DNA of 62,258 nt. Source: Ignavibacteriota bacterium (GTDB lineage: Bacteria > Bacteroidota > Ignavibacteria > UBA10030 > UBA6906). Below are positions 3,650 through 27,401 of the stretch, one piece after another. Location: NCBI GenBank assembly GCA_003158475.1, contig PMJR01000066.1, positions 1 to 62,258 on the forward strand. Direction: 5' to 3'. How positions within the stretch are numbered: the first letter of the stretch is position 1; each line of letters begins with the position of its first letter. The position numbers and the translations under genes were made by a program. The notes below the pieces were generated by a model. The model saw only the letters and a program-made list of their open reading frames with translations. It had not been told where the DNA came from and did not search any database.

Positions 3650-4720
3650 CTATTTCATGAGAACCAGCCTCTTCATCGAGACAAAAGATCCAGTTTCCAG
3701 ACGGTAGAAGTATACTCCGCTGGAGAAATTGATCGGATTGAACGGCACGGTGTAGCTGCCGGCTTCCTGATGACCGTTCACGAGTGTGGCAACATCCTGA
3801 CCCAGCAAATTGTAGACCTTGAGGGAAACCTGAGCAGCGTTCTCAAGACTGTATTGAATCCTCGTGGATGGATTGAATGGATTTGGATAGTTCTGTTCAA
3901 GTGAGAAGTGTTGAATCGGTGAACTCTTGTTGCCGAGAGAGTTCACAACGCTCGGCTTAACCACAGTATTGGCATCCAATGTGACCGCGGTCTGTGCCAG
4001 CGCCCTACCGTCCAGCGTTGCGCCTGTAGTCATCACAATCGCTGTTTGACACAACATGACTCCCTTCATAGCAGCCGCCTTTCCAAGAGTAACCTGGCCG
4101 GCGACCTGCCAGAAGATATTGGACGTCCTCGCACCGCCGATGAGGGTAACCATAGCACCGTCGGCCAATACTAAATTCTGCGCTATCTGGAATATCCAGA
4201 TATCGTTTGCGGTCCCAGAAATGGTGACACCACCAGCAGATACCAGGACATCCGTGCCCCATTTGTATAGACCGGGAATGAGAGTTTGTCCAGTGACATC
4301 TCCGGCGTACAATTCAGTATAGCCGGGAAGTGATCGTCCAGCTGCATCAGTGTACGCAGTTTGCATGTCGCCTATTGCCGCCGTCATTTTGGCTGGACTT
4401 GGGACAGTATAGTCGGAAGCATATATTTTGCCAGTGACTAAGGACGATATCGAGAATGTGCCCGAGGCATCCAGTATAAGTCCAAATCCGGTTATGCCAG
4501 TCGCCTTGATTGGACTAACTCCAATATCACCGGTAATTTTGGTGACCCCTGTAGCAGAAACACCCGTTTGGGTGAGAATAACAAAATCGCCGGCCGTCGC
4601 AAGATTCACCGGTTTGGGCGACTGAGAAACAGCGATGGAAGTCAGCATCAAAGCAACTGCGAGTACTGCGCCGAGGGAGCGCGTCCACCTGTCTGGACTA
4701 CTTGCTGTACGCATCTTCAT
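3650..4720 (-). CDS. DUF3494 ice-binding-like protein with secretion C-terminal sorting domain
   Basis: VNLATAGDFVILTQTGVS, ITGDIGVSP, PGLYKW, IWIFQIA, NIFWQVAG, GRALAQTAVTLD; C-terminal QNYPNPFNPST...SGVYFYRL; GGAGG RBS before ATG 4720. Confidence 0.92.
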   Translation of the reverse strand: MKMRTASSPDRWTRSLGAVLAVALMLTSIAVSQSPKPVNLATAGDFVILTQTGVSATGVTKITGDIGVSPIKATGITGFGLILDASGTFSISSLVTGKIYASDYTVPSPAKMTAAIGDMQTAYTDAAGRSLPGYTELYAGDVTGQTLIPGLYKWGTDVLVSAGGVTISGTANDIWIFQIAQNLVLADGAMVTLIGGARTSNIFWQVAGQVTLGKAAAMKGVMLCQTAIVMTTGATLDGRALAQTAVTLDANTVVKPSVVNSLGNKSSPIQHFSLEQNYPNPFNPSTRIQYSLENAAQVSLKVYNLLGQDVATLVNGHQEAGSYTVPFNPINFSSGVYFYRLETGSFVSMKRLVLMK

Positions 4721-5168
4721 AAACCCTCCATTTGTCCGCATACGATTCCCCAATCTCTTAACTTGGATCGGATTGTCTTCCTTAAATGATTTCTCGAGCT
4801 GACACGAGTTCTGCTCGATCTTTCTTTGTTGTGCAAGGATTTCTGCATTTGAATCAACCGGCAATTGGGCCTCTTGAGTTGTCCGAAGGTCCTCTCGAAA
4901 TCCTTAACCTGTTGGTTCTCCTCCTCCTTAAGAACTCCGTATCTCTCTTCCAGTCTTCCCGCCAGGCTTTATGCTTTCCTGCAGTCAAGGCCGGCTGGGC
5001 GAGCCGTCCGTATTCAACCAGATGAAGCATACCGGATAGAACTGCAGAATGAATCGGCAGAAAGGATGAAAGGGTAGTTAACCACCGGTAGGAGGGAAAT
5101 GTCACCCTTCGCATGGAAATGAGCGACGCTATCCCGGAAACTGTCTCAAAACAGGGATAATCATCAGA

Positions 5169-8697: not shown

Positions 8698-8997
8698 TCA
8701 CAGCCGTTCGACGCGTTTGGCGACAATAAGTCCTCCTTTAATGACTTCTTTGATGTGGGGGAGCACGCCCCGGACCTTTTCTTCATCGTCCACAAAAAGG
8801 ATCATGATGGGTCCCTCGTCCACAGTGCCGATCCCCTTGGTGTGATGGAGATGATGTTTCTGGCCGTACCCCATCACCGCGGGGAAGACCGAAGCGCCCA
8901 TGATCCCGTGATGCATGAGATACCGCATGATGTACTCGTCCATCCGTTTGTCCTGATGCAGGTCGTCTTCGTCGAGGAACATCGTGACTTCAAGCAT
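8698..8997 (-). CDS. DUF190 PII-like protein
   Basis: [22 protein letters not shown]...[13 protein letters not shown]; ATG overlaps the RND stop codon. Confidence 0.85.
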
Positions 8998-11900
8998 GAA
9001 CGTCTCCTTTTCCGTTGCGGAAGAGAATAAGGTAGAGAGCCGGGAGCGTGACAACGGTGAGGAACAACGCCGATGTCAATCCTCCCACAATCACCGTGGC
9101 GAGGGGACGTTGTACGTCCGATCCGATGCCCGTCGCACGCGCGGCCGGAATCAGCCCCAGGAGGGCGAGGAACATCGTCATCAGGTTCGGCCGGAGCTGG
9201 ATGATGGCTGCCTTCCGAACGGCATCTGCGACCGTGCATCCCTCGTCGTCGATCAGCCGGTTCGTCCTGGAGACGAACAACACGCCGGCGATGATCGACA
9301 CCCCGAAGAGGGATATGAACCCGACTCCGGCCGACACATTGAAGCTGTAACCCCGCAGCATCAGTGCGACGATTCCGCCCGCCAGGGCGAGCGGGATCCC
9401 GGCCATGGCGATGGCCACGTGCCGTAGGTTCCTGTAGAGCAGGAAAAGGATCAGGAAAATCATCCCGATGGTGAGCGGGATGACCACCGCGAGTCGCGCC
9501 GCAGCGCGGGAGAGGTTTTCGAACTGCCCCCCCCAGTCGAACGTGTATCCCTTCGGAAGCGTGACGGCCTGTGCCACCCGGTCCCTGGCCTCCGCAACGA
9601 AGCTCCCCTGATCGCGGCCGCGTATGTTCGTCCGGACCGATATCTGCCGCCTGCCATCCTCACGTTGTATGATCGTGGGCCCGTCGACCAGCCTGATTTC
9701 CGCCAGTTGCGACATCGCGGCGCGGGCCCCGGAAGGGGTCACCACAGTCATCCTCTTCACCGCGTCCACAGAGCTACGGAATTCAGACGAATACCGGACC
9801 ACGATGTCGAACCGGCGCTCGCCGTCGTAGAATTTGCTGACCGGCCTTCCCCCGACCGCCGCCTCGATCATCTTCTGGATATCGCTGACATTGACGCCGA
9901 ACCTTGCCGCCGCGGTCCTGTCGATTTCCACGGAGAGCTGCGCCTGGTTCCCTTCCTGCTCGATCCCCGATTCACTTGCGCCGGGGACGGACCGAATGAT
10001 CGCGAGGACCGAGTCCGCCTCCCGCCTCATCAGGTCGAGGTCCTCGCCGCTGATCAGGACCGCGAGATCGGCGACGCTCCCGGTGACCGCTTCGGTGACA
10101 TTGTCGAGGATCGGCTGTGAAAAGGAGAAGAGCGCACCCGGGATCGCCTGCTCGAGTTCGGACTTTATCCGCAGGAGGAGTTCCTTCTTGCTCACCGCCT
10201 TCGTCCAGCGGGAATAGTCTTCCAGTCCTACAAAGATCTCCAGCCGGTTTGGTCCGTACGGATCGGTTCCGTCGTCGTTGCGCCCGAGCTGGGTGAGGAC
10301 CACGTTGACCTGGGGATGGGCGCTGATCAGTTTCCTGATCACGGGGGTGTACTTGCCGGCCTCGCTGAGCGAAATTCCCACAGGGAAGAAGCAGCGTATG
10401 TTGAAGGATCCCTCGTCAAGTTCCGGGAGAAACTCGGTGCCGATGGAATGCGCCCCCGTCAACACGACCACGATCACGATGGCGGTCGCAGCCAGGACCG
10501 TGATCCAGGGGCGCCTGAGCACACGGCTGATCGTTCGTTCGTACCGCTGCTCGATCCAGGCGTACGCCGGGTTGTGCCACTCGATGTGCACCGGGCCTGC
10601 AGATTCGAAATGGCGACGGTAGAACATCGTCATCAGGACAGGGATCACCGTCAGCGCAAGCAACAGCGACCCGGTGATCGCGAACGCCAGAGTGTAGGCC
10701 ATGGGGGAGAAGAGCTTCCCCTCGACGCGCTGGAAGGAGAATATCGGCAGGTAGGCGAGTATGATAATGGCGATTGAAAAGAATATCTCCCGGCCTACCT
10801 CCTGCGCCGACGTCAGTGTGAACCGGATGATCCCCTCCCCCCGGTCGGCCGGGGTGGCGTCGCGGTAGCGTCGCATGATGTTCTCCACCATGACGACCGC
10901 CCCGTCGACGATGATCCCGAAGTCGATCGCGCCCAGGGAGAGGAGATTGGCGGGGATCCCCGTCAGGCGCATCATCGAGAATGCGAAAAGCATCGACACG
11001 GGGATCGTTGTGGCGACCACGAGCGCCGACCGCACGCTTCCGATGAAGAAGATCAGGACGATCAGGACGATGGAGATCCCCTCGAAGAGCGTTCCGGAGA
11101 CCGTGTCGATCGTGTAATCGACGAGCTGGCTCCGGTCATAGGTGATGCGGAGCGAAACGCCCGCCGGAAGATCGTTATCGTTGATCTCGCGCACCTTCTT
11201 CTTCAGAGCCTCGACAACGGCGGAGGGGTTTTCGCCCCTCCGCATGGCGACAAGCCCCTGGATCCCCGAAGAAACATCCTCGATCGTACCATCACTCCCG
11301 CGGATCGCATATCCCAGGGCCCCGGTAGGAGGGAGAGGGAATTCCTCCACGGTGCCGATATTCCTGATGAACACGGGGACGCCGTGCTGGACGGTGAGGA
11401 CGATGTTCTCGATGTCCTCCCTGTTCCTTATCGCGCCGATGCTCCTGACGGCGAATGCCTGCCCGCCCCTCTGGATGATATTCCCGCCGGTGTTCAGGTT
11501 GTTCGAGGTGACGGCATCGATGACGTTTTGGATCGTAATGTTGTACTGCTGAAGCCTGTCGGGGGAGGTTATGACGTGATACTGCTTCACCAGCCCCCCG
11601 AAATTGATAACATCGGCGACGCCCGGAACCTGAAGGAGTCTGGGGATGATGACCCAGTCCTGGAGCGTCCGGAGTTCCATCGGTGTGTGTTCATCGGTCG
11701 ATTCAATCACATAGCGGAAAATCTCTCCGACGGGGCCGGTCAACGGTCCGAGTGCGGGATTGACGCCGTCCGGGAGGACGGCATCGCCGAGTTTTTCAAG
11801 CACCCGCTGGCGTGCGAAATAGTCGTCGGTACCGTCTTCGAATGTAAGCTGAATGACCGAGAGGCCGAATATCGTTTTGGACCGGCGCGTGAGCACGCGG

Positions 11901-12130
11901 GGGACCGAGTTCAGAGCTCGTTCCAGCGGCTCGGTGATCTGCTGTTCGACTTCCGTCGCGGCGCGGCCGGGGAACAGCGTGATAACGGTAACCTGGGTGT
12001 CTCCGACATCGGGATATGCCTCCTTCTGAAGCTGGATCCAGGAGAAGACGCCGGTCGCGGCGATCGCCACGACGAGCCCGATCGTCGCGAGGCGCTGGTT
12101 GAGGGCAAAGGTGAGGAGCTGACGTATCAT
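8990..12130 (-). CDS. czcA: CusA/CzcA-family heavy-metal efflux RND transporter
   Basis: 1046 aa; [55 protein letters not shown]. Confidence 0.93.
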
Positions 12131-12230: not shown

Positions 12231-13226
12231 TTAGTACCCGAAACTCAGGCCCTTGAGGAGCATGGCTCCGTCGGTGACCACCCGTTCGCCGTCCGAGAGA
12301 CCCTTCAGCACGATCACGTCCCCCGCCCCGGAGGAACCTATGGTGATCTGGCGGCGCACGAACTCCGAGTCATTGAGTTGTATGAAGGCGTAGTCCGCCC
12401 CCTCGACGGTCACCACGCCTGATGCGGGCAAGAGCACGATCCCGCTTATCGGATCTCCGAAATCGACGCGGGCGAACATTCCCGGGAGGATCCGGCCCCT
12501 GGGATTGGGCATGGAGACACGCACCTTGACCGTGCGGGTGACAGGATCGACAACCTCGCCGATTGCGTCCGCCCGCCCCCGGAACTTCCCGTCGGGGAAT
12601 GACGCGAGCTGTATCGGGACATCTTCCCCTCTCTGCACCTCGTTGAGTTGCGATTCGGGGACGTCGCACATGAGCCATGCCGTCCCCGGGGGGATTGTGT
12701 CAAACTCCGGGGGGTTATACCCCAGGCCCCGAAGCTTCGATTCGCTCTCCGCCATCGCCGCCTTGGCGGTCGCCGCCTCGTTCTCGGCTTCGTTCAGATC
12801 TTTCGCCGTCGCGGCCTGGTTCTGAAACATGTCCTTGATCCTTGAGAGATTCTTGGAGGCGCGCGCGACGTTCGCGCTCGCCTGGCGGTACTGGGAATAA
12901 AGCGACGTGACGTCCGGCGAGTCGAACATCACGATCCTGTCGTTCGAGCTCAGTCCGGGCACAATGCTCGCGACGACCCGGGCGGGGGCGATGACGGGAA
13001 TGGTGGCGGTCCGTTTTTCCACCATCGCGGATGTGATCCGGCTGAGTCCGGGACTCCCCGACGGGAACCTGATACTTGTCCCGCCCTCGTTCACTTCCGC
13101 GCGCCGCGAGGTTTGCTGGTGGCGAGAGGCGGCCATGTCGTCGCCGTTGCAACCGCACATGAGTGCCGCGCCTGCCAGGATGCACGGGAGGGTCTGCATA
13201 AGAGTGAAGAGACGAGTGGCGTTCAT
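12231..13226 (-). CDS. czcB: RND periplasmic adaptor (CzcB-like), probable lipoprotein
   Basis: VVDPVTRTVKVRV...PGMFARV, GLSDGERVVTDGA; lipobox-like LMCGC. Confidence 0.88.
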   Translation of the reverse strand: MNATRLFTLMQTLPCILAGAALMCGCNGDDMAASRHQQTSRRAEVNEGGTSIRFPSGSPGLSRITSAMVEKRTATIPVIAPARVVASIVPGLSSNDRIVMFDSPDVTSLYSQYRQASANVARASKNLSRIKDMFQNQAATAKDLNEAENEAATAKAAMAESESKLRGLGYNPPEFDTIPPGTAWLMCDVPESQLNEVQRGEDVPIQLASFPDGKFRGRADAIGEVVDPVTRTVKVRVSMPNPRGRILPGMFARVDFGDPISGIVLLPASGVVTVEGADYAFIQLNDSEFVRRQITIGSSGAGDVIVLKGLSDGERVVTDGAMLLKGLSFGY

Positions 13227-13237
13227 GGTGATGTCCT

Positions 13238-14515
13238 TCAAGGCTGGAAAAGGTCTGTTCCTGTGACGTAGTTGAGCATTTCCATCGCGTCGGCACGGTC
13301 GTTCCCGAGCTGGTTCATCTGGAGCATGCTCGTGCGGTACGACTCGATGAAATCCGTAAACTCGATGACGCTCATGTTCCTTTTCTGGTAATTCGCAATC
13401 ATGCCGTCCACGAGCTCGCGGTACTGGAGCGGGAACCTCCGGTCGAACGAGCGGTACAGGCGTTCCAGGTCCGAAGCTCTTCGCAGGGCGGCGGCCACCT
13501 CCTCCAGCACCGACGCACGGTAATTGTCGTGCACCGCCCTGTCCGCCTCCAGCGTCCTGGCGGATACATCGATGTTCCCCTGGTTCCTGTTGAACAAGGG
13601 GAGATCGATCGAGAACGTGAGGGCATAGTAATCGGGGATGTAGCTGCCGGCACGGGACCAGAGGCCGCCTACCGTCAGGTCGGGCGTCGCCAGGGATTTC
13701 TGGTACTCCAGGTTGGCTTCCTCCCGCAGCACCGTGCCGTTCGCCTTCCTGAGGTCCGGCCGGTTCGCGAGTGCCGCAGCGGCGACGTCGGCGTACTGCA
13801 AAGAGTCCGGCCTGAACATTTCAAGCCGTTCGGCGTTGATTTTGGGGATGTAGATTTTCCGCACGCCCGCAGTGTCGCGGAGAAGCACCCGCAGGCTTGA
13901 CTCTATATCTGCGACCTTCCCGAGGAGGCCGAGACGCTCGTTCTGAAGCGAAAAGAGGAGCGATTTCAGCCGGAGGAGCTCCGCCAGGAGTATGGACCGT
14001 CTTTCGTACACGCCTTCGGTGACTGTCACGGTCTTCGTCAGCGTGGCGATGCTTTCGTCGTAGAAGCCGAGGGACTGGTGAAGGTAGTAGAGATCGTACA
14101 GATCGGTCCGCAGCTTGAGTTTGAGGGCCCGCATGACGTCATAGAAATCGTTGCCTGCATTCTCCGCATCGATTTCGGCGAGGCGGACCTGCTTGCCGCG
14201 TTTCCCCGCCAGGAGGAGGAGCTGCTGGATCTGGACCCCCGAATTCCCGCTGGCGGAAACGTCGAACCACCGCCCCGTATACTGGTTATGGATGTTCTGT
14301 TCGACGGAGAGGTTCGGGTTGTTCCAGAGCCCCGCCTGCGAGACGGCAGCCCGGGCGGCATCGATGTTGAACCTCGCGGCGACGAGCTGCAGGTTCCTCT
14401 GGAGGAACTGCTGTTCCGCGTCCTGAACGGCAATACGGATCGTGTCCGCCTGAGAGAATGCTCCCCGCGGTGCCAGCATGCACATGACCCACATCAGGGG
14501 AAGAATGCGGCGCAT
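13238..14515 (-). CDS. czcC: TolC-family outer-membrane efflux protein (CzcC-like)
   Basis: Signal peptide, NPNL, LAGKRGK, ANRPDL, DLPLFNRNQGNI. Confidence 0.9.
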   Translation of the reverse strand: MRRILPLMWVMCMLAPRGAFSQADTIRIAVQDAEQQFLQRNLQLVAARFNIDAARAAVSQAGLWNNPNLSVEQNIHNQYTGRWFDVSASGNSGVQIQQLLLLAGKRGKQVRLAEIDAENAGNDFYDVMRALKLKLRTDLYDLYYLHQSLGFYDESIATLTKTVTVTEGVYERRSILLAELLRLKSLLFSLQNERLGLLGKVADIESSLRVLLRDTAGVRKIYIPKINAERLEMFRPDSLQYADVAAAALANRPDLRKANGTVLREEANLEYQKSLATPDLTVGGLWSRAGSYIPDYYALTFSIDLPLFNRNQGNIDVSARTLEADRAVHDNYRASVLEEVAAALRRASDLERLYRSFDRRFPLQYRELVDGMIANYQKRNMSVIEFTDFIESYRTSMLQMNQLGNDRADAMEMLNYVTGTDLFQP

Positions 14516-14554
14516 AGAATCAATCTCTTTGTGGTTAATGACAACTCGCTGCAG

Positions 14555-14640
14555 TGTGCGCGTACGGTCCGCGCGGTAGGCACCCATGTCATGAGGGGAG
14601 GCATGAGGGCGTGACCGCTCAGTGGACCGGCACGTGCACA
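14555..14640 (-). other. Long imperfect hairpin between the upstream ORF and czcC
   Basis: TGTGCGCGTACGGTCC (14555-14570) is near-complementary to GGACCGGCACGTGCACA (14624-14640); inner GCGGT/ACCGC pairing. Confidence 0.55.
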
Positions 14641-14665
14641 GGATATCGCGGGGGAGGGGAGCGGA

Positions 14666-15040
14666 CTAAATGAGGAGCGCGCGGAGCTTGATATGGAGTG
14701 CGTTGACGGCGAAGACCATTTCATAGGAAACAGTCTTCTCGCCTGAGAACATTGACTGACCTACGAGCGAAGAGGCATCCGACTCCGCAGCCAGCGAGGG
14801 GCTGTCCTGGTCGAGTATGAGGCGAACCGGGGAGGGGGGAAATTTTCCCTGTGAGTCGGGTGACGACCGGTCGGGAGAGGGGATCGACCCGTACGGCGCC
14901 GAGGCGGCATCGTCGTCGTGTATGACGTAGTTGGAAGAGAAGATGTCGTCAAGATTTGCCGCATCTGCAAACAACGTGGCGGCGAACGCCCAGCTCACGA
15001 TCAGAAAAAGCCTGGAGCGCCGTTTGACGAATCGATTCAT
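14666..15040 (-). CDS. Small hypothetical protein heading the efflux operon (possible leader protein)
   Basis: Basic-hydrophobic N-terminus, acidic/Pro-Ser-rich middle, C-terminal IKLRALLI; lies right after a strong promoter. Confidence 0.6.
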   Translation of the reverse strand: MNRFVKRRSRLFLIVSWAFAATLFADAANLDDIFSSNYVIHDDDAASAPYGSIPSPDRSSPDSQGKFPPSPVRLILDQDSPSLAAESDASSLVGQSMFSGEKTVSYEMVFAVNALHIKLRALLI

Positions 15041-15081
15041 GAAAACAGGATGATTGACGGTGAGAACATCCGGAACAGGCA

Positions 15082-15110
15082 AATGTACTATACAGGGAGA
15101 ACATTGTCAA
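15082..15110 (-). promoter_or_regulatory. sigma70-type promoter of the efflux operon
   Basis: TTGACA-N17-TACATT. Confidence 0.65.
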
Positions 15111-15191
15111 CGTCTCTCAGGTTCCCCGCCCGGGGGAGTTCCCCGCTCGGGGAGTGAAAAATGACTGTTCCGCCTGCGGGACGGAAGGGAG

Positions 15192-15241
15192 TTGATTGTT
15201 GGGGGCGTTGGCCCTATTTTACATTCATTGTACGATACCAT
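15192..15241 (+). promoter_or_regulatory. Promoter and candidate operator of the hexuronate operon
   Basis: TTGATT-N17-TATTTT (15192-15220); pseudo-palindrome ATTGTACGATACCAT (15227-15241). Confidence 0.45.
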
Positions 15242-15254
15242 CGTCCATAACAAC

Positions 15255-16517
15255 ATGAGACTGGAAAAATACTCTCTCGGCATCGGAGACAGGTTCGGTC
15301 TTCAGGGTACGCACCAGCTACGGGCATTCCGGATGGCGGCGGAGAAAGGGCTGCAGATCTCCCCCGTCTGGAACAAATCAAACCGCGAGCACGCGATCAT
15401 CGGCACGCATCCCTCCGATACGCGCGCGGAGGCGGACGAGGCGGTCAGAGATCTCGGGTGGCGGGGAGCGTACTTCGTTGATGCGGACCATATCGGGGCT
15501 GCGACGGTGGAGAGGTTCATCGACTCGAGCGACTTTTTTACGATCGATGTCGCAGAGTTCATCGGGACGCCCGCCTCGGGGGATGCCGTCAGGACATTTC
15601 TCGGCGCCATGGCGCCCCTTACCGGAGCGATAGTCGTCCCCGGGCTTGACGAGCCGATGAATGTCGATGAGTCGCTCCTCCGCGCAGTTGCCGCCAAATA
15701 CCTTAACGCCGTGAAGGAGGCCGGGCGCGTCTACCGCATGATACTCTCGGGACGGCGCGGGAAGGAGTTCATCCCGGAGGTGTCTCTCGATGAGTCGGAC
15801 GCTCCGCAGTCGCCGGAAGAGCTTCTTTTCATTCTGGGGGCCATCGGCGCGGAGGGGATACCCGTCCGGACGATTGCCCCGAAATTCACAGGTTCATTTC
15901 TGAAGGGGATCGATTACGTCGGGGACAGGGGGGCGTTCGCCCGCGAGTTCGAACAGGACCTCGCAGTCGTTGCATTTGCGGCCGGATCCTTTCATCTTCC
16001 GGGGGACCTCAAGCTCTCGGTCCACACCGGAAGCGACAAGTTCTCCCTCTACCCCCTGATGCACAGGGCGATCAGGAGATTTGACGCCGGTCTCCATCTG
16101 AAGACCGCCGGGACGACGTGGTTGGAAGAGGTGATAGGGCTCGCGGAGGCGGGGGGGGAAGGCCTCCGGGCTGCGAAGGAAATCTATACGCTCTCGCTCG
16201 GCAGGTTCGACGAACTTTGCGGTCCCTATCTCCAGGTCATCAGCATCGACAGGTCGAAGCTCCCTTCTCCGGCGGAAGTGGCAACATGGTCGGGGGACGT
16301 CTTTGCCGGTGCGCTGCGTCACGACCCGGTTCACCCGGGGTTCAACCCGAACTTCCGCCAGCTCATCCATGTCGGTTACAAGGTTGCGGCGGAAATGGGC
16401 CACCGGTTCACAGACCTCCTGCGACACAACGCAGTTCCGGTCGGGAGAAACGTCACGTACAATCTCTACCACCGTCACATCGTGCCGCTGTTCCTGGGAG
16501 CGGGCAACCCGGATTGA
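15255..16517 (+). CDS. uxaE: Tagaturonate/fructuronate epimerase
   Basis: SLGIGDRFG, VDADHI, EVSLDE, KLSVHTGSDKF, HLKTAGTTWLEE. Confidence 0.9.
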   Translation: MRLEKYSLGIGDRFGLQGTHQLRAFRMAAEKGLQISPVWNKSNREHAIIGTHPSDTRAEADEAVRDLGWRGAYFVDADHIGAATVERFIDSSDFFTIDVAEFIGTPASGDAVRTFLGAMAPLTGAIVVPGLDEPMNVDESLLRAVAAKYLNAVKEAGRVYRMILSGRRGKEFIPEVSLDESDAPQSPEELLFILGAIGAEGIPVRTIAPKFTGSFLKGIDYVGDRGAFAREFEQDLAVVAFAAGSFHLPGDLKLSVHTGSDKFSLYPLMHRAIRRFDAGLHLKTAGTTWLEEVIGLAEAGGEGLRAAKEIYTLSLGRFDELCGPYLQVISIDRSKLPSPAEVATWSGDVFAGALRHDPVHPGFNPNFRQLIHVGYKVAAEMGHRFTDLLRHNAVPVGRNVTYNLYHRHIVPLFLGAGNPD

Positions 16518-26452: not shown

Positions 26453-26481
26453 TTGACTGGCGCGTTCTGAAATGTTACATT
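26453..26481 (+). promoter_or_regulatory. sigma70-type promoter with extended -10
   Basis: TTGACT-N17-TACATT with TG; ATG 8 nt downstream. Confidence 0.6.
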
Positions 26482-26489
26482 CATCATCC

Positions 26490-27401
26490 ATGAATCCGTC
26501 TTCTCTTCACGCCCGCACACCGATCCGGGCCACGACCCGGGTCCGCCATTTGGCCGTTCCGGCCTTCCTCCTGGTGGTCTCCCTTCTCCGGCCCGGAGAG
26601 CATGTGTACGCGCAGGATACCTCTGACGTGAACCCCGCCCGGCTCGCGATCGTTTCAGGTATCACGTTCGGAACAGTGATCCCCGTCCACATCTACCAGC
26701 AGAACGCCTGGTGGCAGGGAGCCCGGGCTCCCTTCCGATTCGAAAATGACTGGGCGTACGCGTTGAATGTCGACAAGCTGGGACATATGTACGCGGGATA
26801 CCTTCTCTCCCGGACGTTCAGGTACTCGCTGGAGTGGAGCGGATTCAGCCGTCACACGAGCACGTTTTACGGGTCTGTGCTCGGATTAGCCTACCAGATG
26901 TATGTGGAAGTCGAGGACGGGTTCCACAGGATCTACGGCTTCAGCCCGGGGGACGCGTTCTTCAACATGATCGGCGCTGCAATTCCGCTTGCACAGTGGA
27001 CGTTCCCCCTCCTCAGGAATTTCACGCTCAAATACAGCTACTGGCCGAGCACGGGGTACAGGAACGAACTGCGCGCGGGACAGGGGAGGGCGTTCCTCGA
27101 CGACTACCAGGGGACAACAGTGTGGCTGGGCGTCGACCCCCATTTTTTGTTGGGGAGCCGCCTTGCGGATGCTCTGCCCCCATGGCTTGGCCTGGCGTTC
27201 GGCGTCGGGGCAAGGGACCTGGATGAGACTGGGGGCGGGCGACGTCAGGCCACGATTGCGCTGGACTACAATTTCTCCAGGATTCAAACGGGGAGCGACT
27301 TCCTCCAGGCGCTCTTCACGTTCGTGGACTTCTATCACCTCCCGGCGCCCGGCATCAGGCTTGACGGGAAACGGATCATCTTCGGGGTCTTCTATCCATG
27401 A
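26490..27401 (+). CDS. DUF2279/YfiM-like protein
   Basis: WW...FRFEND, VDKLGHMY, EVEDGF...GFSPGD, DDYQGTTVW. Confidence 0.8.
   Translation: MNPSSLHARTPIRATTRVRHLAVPAFLLVVSLLRPGEHVYAQDTSDVNPARLAIVSGITFGTVIPVHIYQQNAWWQGARAPFRFENDWAYALNVDKLGHMYAGYLLSRTFRYSLEWSGFSRHTSTFYGSVLGLAYQMYVEVEDGFHRIYGFSPGDAFFNMIGAAIPLAQWTFPLLRNFTLKYSYWPSTGYRNELRAGQGRAFLDDYQGTTVWLGVDPHFLLGSRLADALPPWLGLAFGVGARDLDETGGGRRQATIALDYNFSRIQTGSDFLQALFTFVDFYHLPAPGIRLDGKRIIFGVFYP

Follow-up and report, generated by a model that had tools for sequence, protein, structure and literature searches.

Background

Leader peptides that sense a metal while they are being synthesised are a recent discovery and are known only for copper, with Cys/His metal sites and proline-based stalling. 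In Bordetella pertussis, CruR (Bp2923) is encoded by an upstream open reading frame (uORF) of the DUF2946 family whose RAPP arrest motif and CXXC motif control Rho-dependent termination; the spacing between the two motifs is described as extremely well conserved and functionally important, and a tract richer in C than in G (C>G bubble) that runs from the ORF into the spacer was mapped as a Rho utilisation (rut) region starting inside the ORF (PMC9426467). CutF of Rhodobacter capsulatus is a Sec-exported sensor with a Pro-rich end, and a stem-loop downstream of it covers the ribosome-binding site of the next gene; the metal site of CutF, which the authors place in the SecY vestibule, lies 45 residues from the C-terminal stalling motif, and CutF-like genes are reported as common upstream of CusC/CzcC-type outer-membrane efflux protein (OEP) genes and in Bacteroidota (PMC9973294). 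Other uORFs, related to the Sec pathway, arrest at the stop codon through NSP-stop, NAP-stop or DGMK-stop motifs, one of which is proline-free (PMC10987492). Finally, CzcI of Cupriavidus metallidurans pMOL30 is described as a periplasmic quencher that acts on CzcCBA in trans, with czcI and czcICBA transcripts coexisting (PMC10127602). The present work concerns a small ORF of 124 codons that precedes a czcC-czcB-czcA gene set in an Ignavibacteriota bacterium (assembly GCA_003158475.1, contig PMJR01000066.1); the whole stretch of 62,258 nucleotides that was analysed is hereafter referred to as the window.

A preliminary description of this locus started from the premise that DUF2946/CruR-type uORFs with a RAPP motif control metal-transport genes, which is correct (PMC9426467, PMC9973294), and proposed that the small ORF might be an analogous leader with a different C-terminus. 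Its account of the layout was confirmed here: a strong promoter, a 124-residue product with a signal-like N-terminus, an 86-nt hairpin about 25 nt after the stop codon and a czcC gene with a weak Shine-Dalgarno element were all recovered, the only correction being that the ATG of czcC is at 14515 and not at 14516. Weighing all the evidence, the small ORF is tentatively read as a metal-sensing leader of the CruR/CutF/TnaC kind that would act in cis by gating the access of Rho to the transcript, a reading to which we give a little less than an even chance.

Results and discussion

A small gene of an undescribed family

The small ORF, the spacer that follows it, the czcC-czcB-czcA genes, the promoter and the hairpin all lie on the minus strand (Table 1). 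The ORF translation begins MNRFVKRRSRLFLIVSWAFAATLFADA..., contains the DDIF...HDDD stretch and ends with LHIKLRALLI, in agreement with the preliminary description. Full-length matches were found in 13 of 41 related genomes, with an identity that drops to ca. 30%; within the genus, 7 of the 8 remaining genomes carry the ORF. In large protein collections, 171 relatives were detected at E <= 1e-3 and the family amounts to ca. 194 representatives when clustered at 50% identity; the named records all correspond to metagenome-assembled genomes of uncultured Ignavibacteriota or Bacteroidota from peat, fen and soil, and the source annotation of the members is always "hypothetical protein". For nine genus-level sequences the ratio of nonsynonymous to synonymous substitution rates (dN/dS) is 0.17, and the frame is therefore translated and constrained.

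None of the models of Pfam (E <= 0.01) and NCBIfam matches the window protein. A consistent Pfam match was also absent from the 92 aligned members of the family at E <= 1, with PF11162 not among the families matched, and a profile search of the PDB with the family found nothing. In the ESM Atlas, only unnamed clusters were retrieved, plus one in which DUF8440 covers 34% of the members. A literature search, which did not extend to the supplementary lists of CutF-like proteins, found no description of the family. These data indicate that the small ORF is a true gene, that it is translated into a short protein, Sec-exported and disordered over most of its length, and that it founds an undescribed and unnamed family confined to uncultured Ignavibacteriota/Bacteroidota.

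Conserved motifs at a fixed distance from the stop codon

The family alignment comprises 92 sequences, 91 of which were used to count distances, and 29 new loci from metagenome contigs served as a replication set. The N-terminus is of fixed length: MNRF and basic residues precede a hydrophobic core of 14 residues, which is followed by an A-D-[GA] site. Positions -3 and -1 hold small residues in 71 of the 92 members, and the first ten residues contain on average 2.5 Lys and Arg. The signal peptide call is rule-based; AlphaFold2 predicts a helix at residues 10-27 with a predicted local distance difference test score (pLDDT) of ca. 91.

Two acidic motifs are found in the mature part. In motif 1, D26 is invariant (92/92), D32 occurs in 91/92 and both N29 and H41 in 90/92, and the last position of the motif is occupied by D or E; in motif 2, D77 and D79 occur in 92/92 and S80 in 91/92. 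Linker 1, which is Pro/Ser-rich, varies in length from 39 to 64 residues. Linker 2 is poorly conserved in sequence, and the distance from D77 to the last residue (hereafter the ruler) is 47-48 residues in 89/91 sequences and in 26 of the 29 new metagenome sequences. The C-terminus of the family reads L-[YH]-[LI]-x-x-[CRH]-[TS]-L-L-[IL] with the stop codon directly after it in 92/92; the last three residues correspond to [LFI][LIR][IL] in all members and to LLI in 67 of them. When dN/dS was calculated by part, it was 0.05 for motif 1, 0.04 for motif 2, and 0.31 and 0.14 for the linkers. Only 4 of the 92 sequences contain CxxC or CxxxC in their mature part and, as judged from the alignment, the conserved candidate metal ligands are H41 and Asp/Ser residues and not a Cys- or His-rich site. 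With the 92-sequence alignment, AlphaFold2 returned a mean pLDDT of 62.6, residues 30-124 being mostly at 53-64; only the signal helix is confident, and the protein beyond it is predicted to be disordered.

The preliminary description had expected conservation to be confined to the two ends of the protein, and had regarded the lack of a C-terminal motif or of a conserved spacing in homologous loci as evidence against a leader. The signal and the last ten residues are indeed kept, the latter in 92/92, but the two acidic motifs are invariant as well and the linkers are constrained, while motif and ruler both turned out to be conserved across the family.

These features also bear on the main alternative, in which the product works in trans. 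An analogue of CzcI, exported, disordered and acidic, would bind divalent cations after cleavage of its signal peptide, dock through its motifs and C-terminal strand on CzcC/CzcB or another envelope protein, and tune efflux by quenching, chaperoning or buffering. In that case the spacer and its hairpin would be nothing more unusual in an operon than, for instance, a site of mRNA processing or stability. This alternative is plausible, if somewhat doubtful. Three short invariant motifs set in disorder are typical of a partner-binding protein, purifying selection acts on the whole protein, linkers included, and the arrest-type Pro motif is absent from the 92 sequences; CzcI itself, a small signal-peptide protein encoded 75 nt before czcC on pMOL30 that is reported to quench CzcCBA in the periplasm, provides the precedent (PMC10127602). 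The failure of AlphaFold2 to give a fold and the lack of detectable similarity to CzcI or DUF2946 (see below) do not favour it, and it leaves unexplained the constant first position of the gene, the long spacer, the C>G bubble centred on the stop codon and the ATT bias at the last codon that are reported in the following sections.

The small gene as first gene of envelope operons

Genomic context was surveyed at 31 distinct loci (labelled L). The small gene is first in the operon at every locus examined, downstream genes vary, and in genomes with two copies each copy heads its own operon. In the window, it opens its transcription unit since the upstream neighbour is a divergent uxaE-type gene. 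Genes for OEP, membrane-fusion protein (MFP) and resistance-nodulation-division (RND) components are located downstream in most loci: an OEP-MFP(-RND) set occurs directly 3' of the small gene in 11 loci, after a gap of 103-155 nt, and an OEP-MFP set occurs in a second clade after 195-257 nt. In 5 Pfam-checked loci the next gene encodes a DUF2279 lipoprotein, followed in places by an outer-membrane protein (OMP) barrel-like gene, an OEP gene or PAP2. Further arrangements were seen as well, and in five loci (L047, L012, L011, L015 and L044) no pump genes were found within the available flank. The small gene thus heads envelope-protein operons, usually of the czcCBA metal-efflux type. Based on its matches to family models (Table 1), the set found in the window, composed of an RND pump, an adaptor and an outer-membrane factor, is a heavy-metal efflux RND operon of the czcCBA type.

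Genes related to zinc were found next to several loci, with ZnuA and ABC-3 zinc-uptake genes upstream in L031, L032 and L033 (Pfam-checked) and an Nramp gene upstream of the small ORF in L014. Such neighbours are in line with a modulator of metal efflux acting in trans; a partner specific to the pump would not be universal, however, because RND genes are missing from the flanks of the five loci listed above.

Three further observations relate to these gene sets. In L035 (3169-4456) the downstream OEP gene appears to be broken into two reading frames (258 and 220 aa), possibly by a frameshift or an assembly error. The window also carries a DUF2279 lipoprotein gene (26472-27401, plus strand), that is, a member of the family found 3' of the small ORF in other genomes. 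A second copy of the small gene was searched for upstream of it, and the 102-aa ORF found there is unrelated.

A C-rich tract centred on the stop codon

The spacer between the small ORF and czcC is 150 nt long in the window; in the 25 loci for which the next start could be placed it ranges from 55 to 356 nt and contains more C than G in every case (25/25). The excess of C over G reaches +28% at the stop codon of the window (78-nt windows) and, at the family level, peaks exactly at the stop, with a mean of +18 to +20% and positive values in 29/29 loci, compared to a background in the same loci with a mean of 0.8, a standard deviation of 8.9 and a 95th percentile of 15.4. The same bubble was recovered in the new metagenome loci (28/28 positive, mean +17.9%), which brings the total to 57/57. 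The first 30 bases of the spacer contain on average 12.6 C and 5.4 G, and the base that follows the stop is C in 18/25 and 22/29 loci. A second C>G bubble occurs inside the ORF over linker 1 (14810-14960), where it reaches +29.5% in the window and has positive values in 28-31 of the 31 loci.

When the last sense codon (14669-14671 in the window) encodes Ile, it is ATT in 23/29 and 22/27 loci (45/56 altogether), while ATT accounts for 29-30% of the Ile codons elsewhere in these loci and for 18% in the long ORFs of the genome. This bias suggests that selection acts on nucleotides or through tRNAs where translation terminates. The stop codon itself varies over the 31 loci, with 16 TAG, 8 TGA and 7 TAA.

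No intrinsic terminator was detected in the spacer and the hairpin is not followed by a U-run. A scan of 14300-15300 against Rfam at E <= 10 gave no match, and hence no known riboswitch, including those for metals. The genome encodes Rho (547 bits, over the cut-off).

In the window the small ORF and czcC are in the same frame, with a stop-free spacer after a single TAG. A fusion of the two products by TAG readthrough was considered and rejected as probably due to chance, because only 3 of 11 homologous spacers have a length that is a multiple of three.

The hairpin in the spacer

The GC-rich hairpin of the spacer starts 25 nt after the stop codon and ends ca. 40 nt before the ATG of czcC. The region 14500-14680 folds at -55.2 kcal/mol (z = -2.49), a value reached by 1 of 200 shuffled sequences. 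A hairpin of 22 pairs is kept at the same place in 6/6 genus-level loci, with 87% of the alignment cells paired. The covariation analysis, which the preliminary description had suggested, gave a score of 0.291 versus 0.215 in shuffles (reached by 6/500), five pairs having changed on both sides; this support holds within the genus only, for no common structure was left once three distant loci were added. Distant spacers contain other GC-rich hairpins that cannot be aligned to this one, and the fold z-scores of 11 loci range from +0.47 to -3.27, most being unremarkable.

A hairpin that is real and conserved within the genus, together with a minimum-free-energy fold in which the region of the stop codon is paired with bases immediately 5' of the czcC ATG, could point to a translational switch of the SecM/CutF type, in which a stalled ribosome would melt the 86-nt hairpin and so uncover the ribosome-binding site of czcC, as CutF does (PMC9973294). 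Such a switch is nonetheless improbable at this locus. In partition-function folds of 17 loci, that is, within a thermodynamic model, native and shuffled spacers leave the start region of the next gene equally accessible, and this region does not open when the bases under the footprint of a terminating ribosome are taken out; the notion of a masked ribosome-binding site is thus left without folding support. The position of the hairpin, 25 nt past the stop and ca. 40 nt short of the ATG, also counts against the switch. A length of 100-350 nt is, moreover, large for a spacer that a ribosome waiting at the stop would have to melt, a difficulty that the authors of the CutF study also raise for long spacers (PMC9973294). 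Pairing of a C-rich tract with the Shine-Dalgarno region was also explored: it occurs in some folds (L004, L020) and does not exceed shuffled controls. Within the genus, the hairpin might still be a pause or processing site.

A leader that could sense metal and gate Rho

Combining these observations, the following scheme is proposed for the small gene as a cis-acting leader, for which we infer metal binding, stalling, the action of Rho and the direction of the response. When the ribosome reaches the conserved LHIKLRxLLI-stop segment, the N-terminal acidic/His motif would already be outside the membrane, and the fixed-length linker would keep DQDSPS (motif 2) at a distance of 42-47 residues from the peptidyl-transferase centre, placing it at the tunnel exit or within the SecY vestibule. 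If a hard divalent cation (of the Zn, Co or Cd type) then bound, the pulling force on the nascent chain, or its conformation, would be altered, and termination or ribosome release at the stop codon would be delayed. The parked ribosome would then cover the C-rich tract that straddles the stop, Rho could not load, and transcription would pass the GC-rich hairpin, a possible pause site, into czcCBA. In the absence of metal, the ribosome would depart, Rho would load and most transcripts would end in the spacer.

A nascent-chain sensor acting in cis fits better than an ordinary periplasmic protein because the gene is always first, the genes downstream of it vary, and its product is predicted to be disordered and carries a ruler; the C-terminus locked to the stop, the codon and context oddities around it, the long spacer and the C-rich tract centred on the stop codon favour it further. 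The two roles are not mutually exclusive.

Several points weigh against such a sensor. The protein ends without a known arrest motif, Pro being found in the last 10 residues of 0/92 members and PP in the last 15 residues of 1/92. Purifying selection also covers the linkers, as expected for a protein with its own function, and a segment folding upon a partner could explain the fixed distance of 47-48 residues just as well. Since the stop codon is not conserved, an arrest specific to one release factor is argued against. The C>G bubble stems in part from the codons that encode Leu, His and Ile in the C-terminal motif; at synonymous third positions of the last 12 codons, the share of C is only modestly raised (0.63 versus 0.51 in downstream genes). 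RNA structure is not conserved beyond the genus, a consensus of nine loci being reduced to 4 pairs and -2.9 kcal/mol. The loci are phylogenetically related, so that counts overstate their independence. Among the small genes that precede czcC, the best studied is czcI, whose product is reported to work in trans (PMC10127602). Finally, contigs from four RNA libraries match stretches of the ORF, the spacer and czcC, one of 270 nt bridging the stop codon (14530-14799) and others reaching upstream of the promoter; these contigs, which are possibly DNA-derived and cannot show transcript levels or ends, were not used as evidence.

The proposal of an analogous leader made in the preliminary description is thus upheld as regards a conserved, proline-free end and a conserved spacing, and finds no support as regards the role of the hairpin or a relationship to DUF2946. 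The family either adds a variant to the class of metal-sensing leaders or represents a new pump modulator of the periplasm. Should the leader mechanism hold, sensing by a nascent leader would also include metals of the zinc type and a proline-free end at the stop codon. Sensors of this kind would then have evolved at least twice, and a compact cassette (promoter, 124 codons and 150-nt spacer) would be at hand for study. Should the protein act in trans, metal efflux pumps would have a modulator of a new kind, disordered and periplasmic. In both cases, ca. 194 clusters of "hypothetical proteins" gain a context and precise mutational targets.

Promoters and other features of the locus

The coordinates of the features are collected in Table 1. 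The sigma-70-like promoter is the sole TTGACA-17-TACATT-type site in 14300-15400, where shuffled sequences contain 0.5 on average, and its hexamers are located at -68 to -70 from the ORF ATG in 9 close relatives. It overlaps a second candidate, GGAAC-N18-GTTCTC, which is presumably of the extracytoplasmic function (ECF) sigma type, the consensus assumed for that type being AAC ... CGT. GGAAC was found within 130 nt upstream of the small ORF in 24/31 loci (among them L031-L037, L042 and L045) and, in distant clades, the upstream motif reads GGAAC-N17-(C/T)GTCTAA. The family may therefore have two promoter types, the clade of the window being the one in which GGAAC-N18-GTTC overlaps a sigma-70-like site.

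An ECF-driven operon would be expected if the small protein were an envelope-stress peptide whose LLI-COOH end was recognised by a periplasmic protease of the PDZ type, either as ligand or as degron, and fed back on the ECF pathway. The strictly conserved, nonpolar C-terminus is compatible with this possibility, since nonpolar C-termini are called degradation signals by the authors of the CruR study (PMC9426467), and genes for PAS-HisKA_2 histidine kinases lie directly upstream in 4 loci (L016, L041, L046 and L047). It nevertheless appears very improbable: no genes for an ECF sigma factor, an anti-sigma factor or a PDZ protease were seen beside the examined loci, the clade of the window also has a good sigma-70-like promoter, the ECF-type label is itself an assumption, and neither the ruler nor the C>G bubble would be explained.

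The weak Shine-Dalgarno-like element of czcC, GAGA or GAGG followed by N8-ATG, is present in 7/9 aligned loci; genome-wide, the enrichment in Shine-Dalgarno sequences is modest and located at about -14 to -9. Elsewhere in the window, a gene on the minus strand (3650-4864) encodes a protein with an ice-binding-like domain and a type IX secretion C-terminal sorting domain.

Table 1. Features of the small gene locus and of the downstream efflux genes, in window coordinates
Feature	Position	Strand	Basis
Candidate ECF-type promoter, GGAAC-N18-GTTCTC, overlapping the sigma-70-like promoter	15097..15125	-	motif scan
Sigma-70-like promoter, TTGACA-17-TACATT	15082..15110	-	10/12 consensus positions matched
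Small ORF, 124 codons + TAG	14666..15040	-	ATG at 15040, TAG at 14668-14666
Sec-type signal peptide (predicted), residues 1-27	14960..15040	-	K/R-rich start, 14-residue hydrophobic core, A-D-A cleavage-type site
Motif 1, D-x-A-N-L-D-D-[LI]-F ... V-x-H-D-D-D, residues 26-45	14906..14965	-	alignment
Motif 2, V-R-[VI]-I-x-D-Q-D-S-P-S-L-A-A, residues 72-85	14786..14827	-	alignment
C-terminal motif LHIKLRALLI ending at the stop codon, residues 115-124	14669..14698	-	alignment
C-rich, G-poor tract (C>G bubble) around the stop codon, candidate Rho loading site	14600..14720	-	skew
GC-rich imperfect hairpin of the spacer, 86 nt	14555..14640	-	minimum-free-energy fold of 14500-14680
GAGA, weak Shine-Dalgarno-like element 8 nt before the czcC ATG	14524..14527	-	alignment
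czcC, outer-membrane efflux protein	13238..14515	-	Pfam OEP, 1.9e-31, 109.8 bits vs cut-off 22
czcB, periplasmic adaptor (membrane-fusion protein)	12231..13241	-	HlyD_D23; TIGR01730, 111.8 vs cut-off 94.9
czcA, CusA/CzcA-family heavy-metal RND pump	8990..12130	-	TIGR00914, 933.6 bits vs cut-off 701.45

Comparison with known systems

Features of the DUF2946/CutF-CruR group that were found here are a Sec signal (rule-based), a conserved spacing and the position as first gene before a long spacer; a match to PF11162, a Pro-rich or RAPP/RGPP end and a Cys/His-based metal site were not found. Canonical DUF2946-type ORFs with an RGPP end and His/Cys motifs do occur in the same order (L048, 1393-1749; L049, 1381-1737; L054, L050 and L052), where they precede genes of 385-400 aa, one of which has a weak beta-barrel porin match; one of these ORFs carries the NCBI name "DUF2946 family protein". 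Comparison of the family with 11 DUF2946/RGPP proteins of that order by hhalign gave a probability of 0.3%, and a search of the present genome with PF11162 at E <= 0.01 returned nothing.

Several traits are shared with CruR as it is described: the first position in a metal-related operon, an N-terminal signal, poor structure, a nonpolar C-terminus, two motifs at a tightly conserved spacing, a C>G bubble that runs from the ORF end into the spacer, and a long GC-rich spacer (162 nt for CruR versus 150 nt in the window) (PMC9426467). CruR differs by its CXXC motif and C-terminal RAPP, compared to Asp/His/Ser motifs and a proline-free LLI at the stop in the present family, and its function is reported to be independent of its signal peptide (PMC9426467). 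CruR also controls a copper importer and is switched off by metal (PMC9426467), whereas the cargo here is an efflux pump, so that the opposite response to metal would be expected.

As with CutF, the small protein is Sec-exported and heads a metal-detoxification operon, and the spacing to the C-terminal end is similar, 45 residues from the metal site in CutF and 47-48 from the candidate site in motif 2 here; CutF, however, has a CxxxC site and a PPP-type stalling motif that depends on elongation factor EF-P (PMC9973294; bioRxiv 10.1101/2025.02.05.636593). The folding models provide no support for a stem-loop that hides the ribosome-binding site of the next gene, which is a further difference. 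The family falls outside the published survey of CutF-like proteins because the filter applied there required PP in the last 15 residues (PMC9973294), a feature of a single member here.

CzcI resembles the present protein in being small, in having a signal peptide, in being encoded directly upstream of czcC and co-transcribed with czcCBA, and in its lack of a C-terminal proline motif (PMC10127602). It differs by being His/Cys-rich and by a weak DUF2946 match (E 0.026). By hhalign, the similarity between CzcI and the family has a probability of 1% (E 0.054 over 18 columns).

TnaC, the leader of the E. coli tna operon, is a cytoplasmic peptide of 24 residues that senses tryptophan in the ribosomal tunnel and ends with Pro-UGA. 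The proposed masking of a Rho loading site by a ribosome at the leader stop codon would follow the same logic (summarised in PMC9973294), and the elements of CruR/TnaC-type attenuation found here are a rut-like C-rich tract at the ORF end, on which Rho would act, and a rho gene. Unlike TnaC, the small protein has 124 residues, is exported and ends at a stop codon that varies.

The arrest-prone uORFs related to the Sec pathway share with the family an upstream position, an N-terminal localisation signal and a motif right before the stop codon; their arrest requires that codon (PMC10987492). They monitor Sec/YidC and precede secA or secDF, and their motifs are unrelated to LLI (PMC10987492). A bolder reading of these comparisons, which for the present we regard as unlikely, is that the small gene encodes a proline-free peptide that arrests or pauses at the stop codon, senses hard divalent cations via Asp, Ser and His, uses the ruler within the ribosome-SecYEG conduit and masks a Rho site over its own stop; it would then be an independently evolved counterpart of CruR and CutF for metals that have had no described leader.

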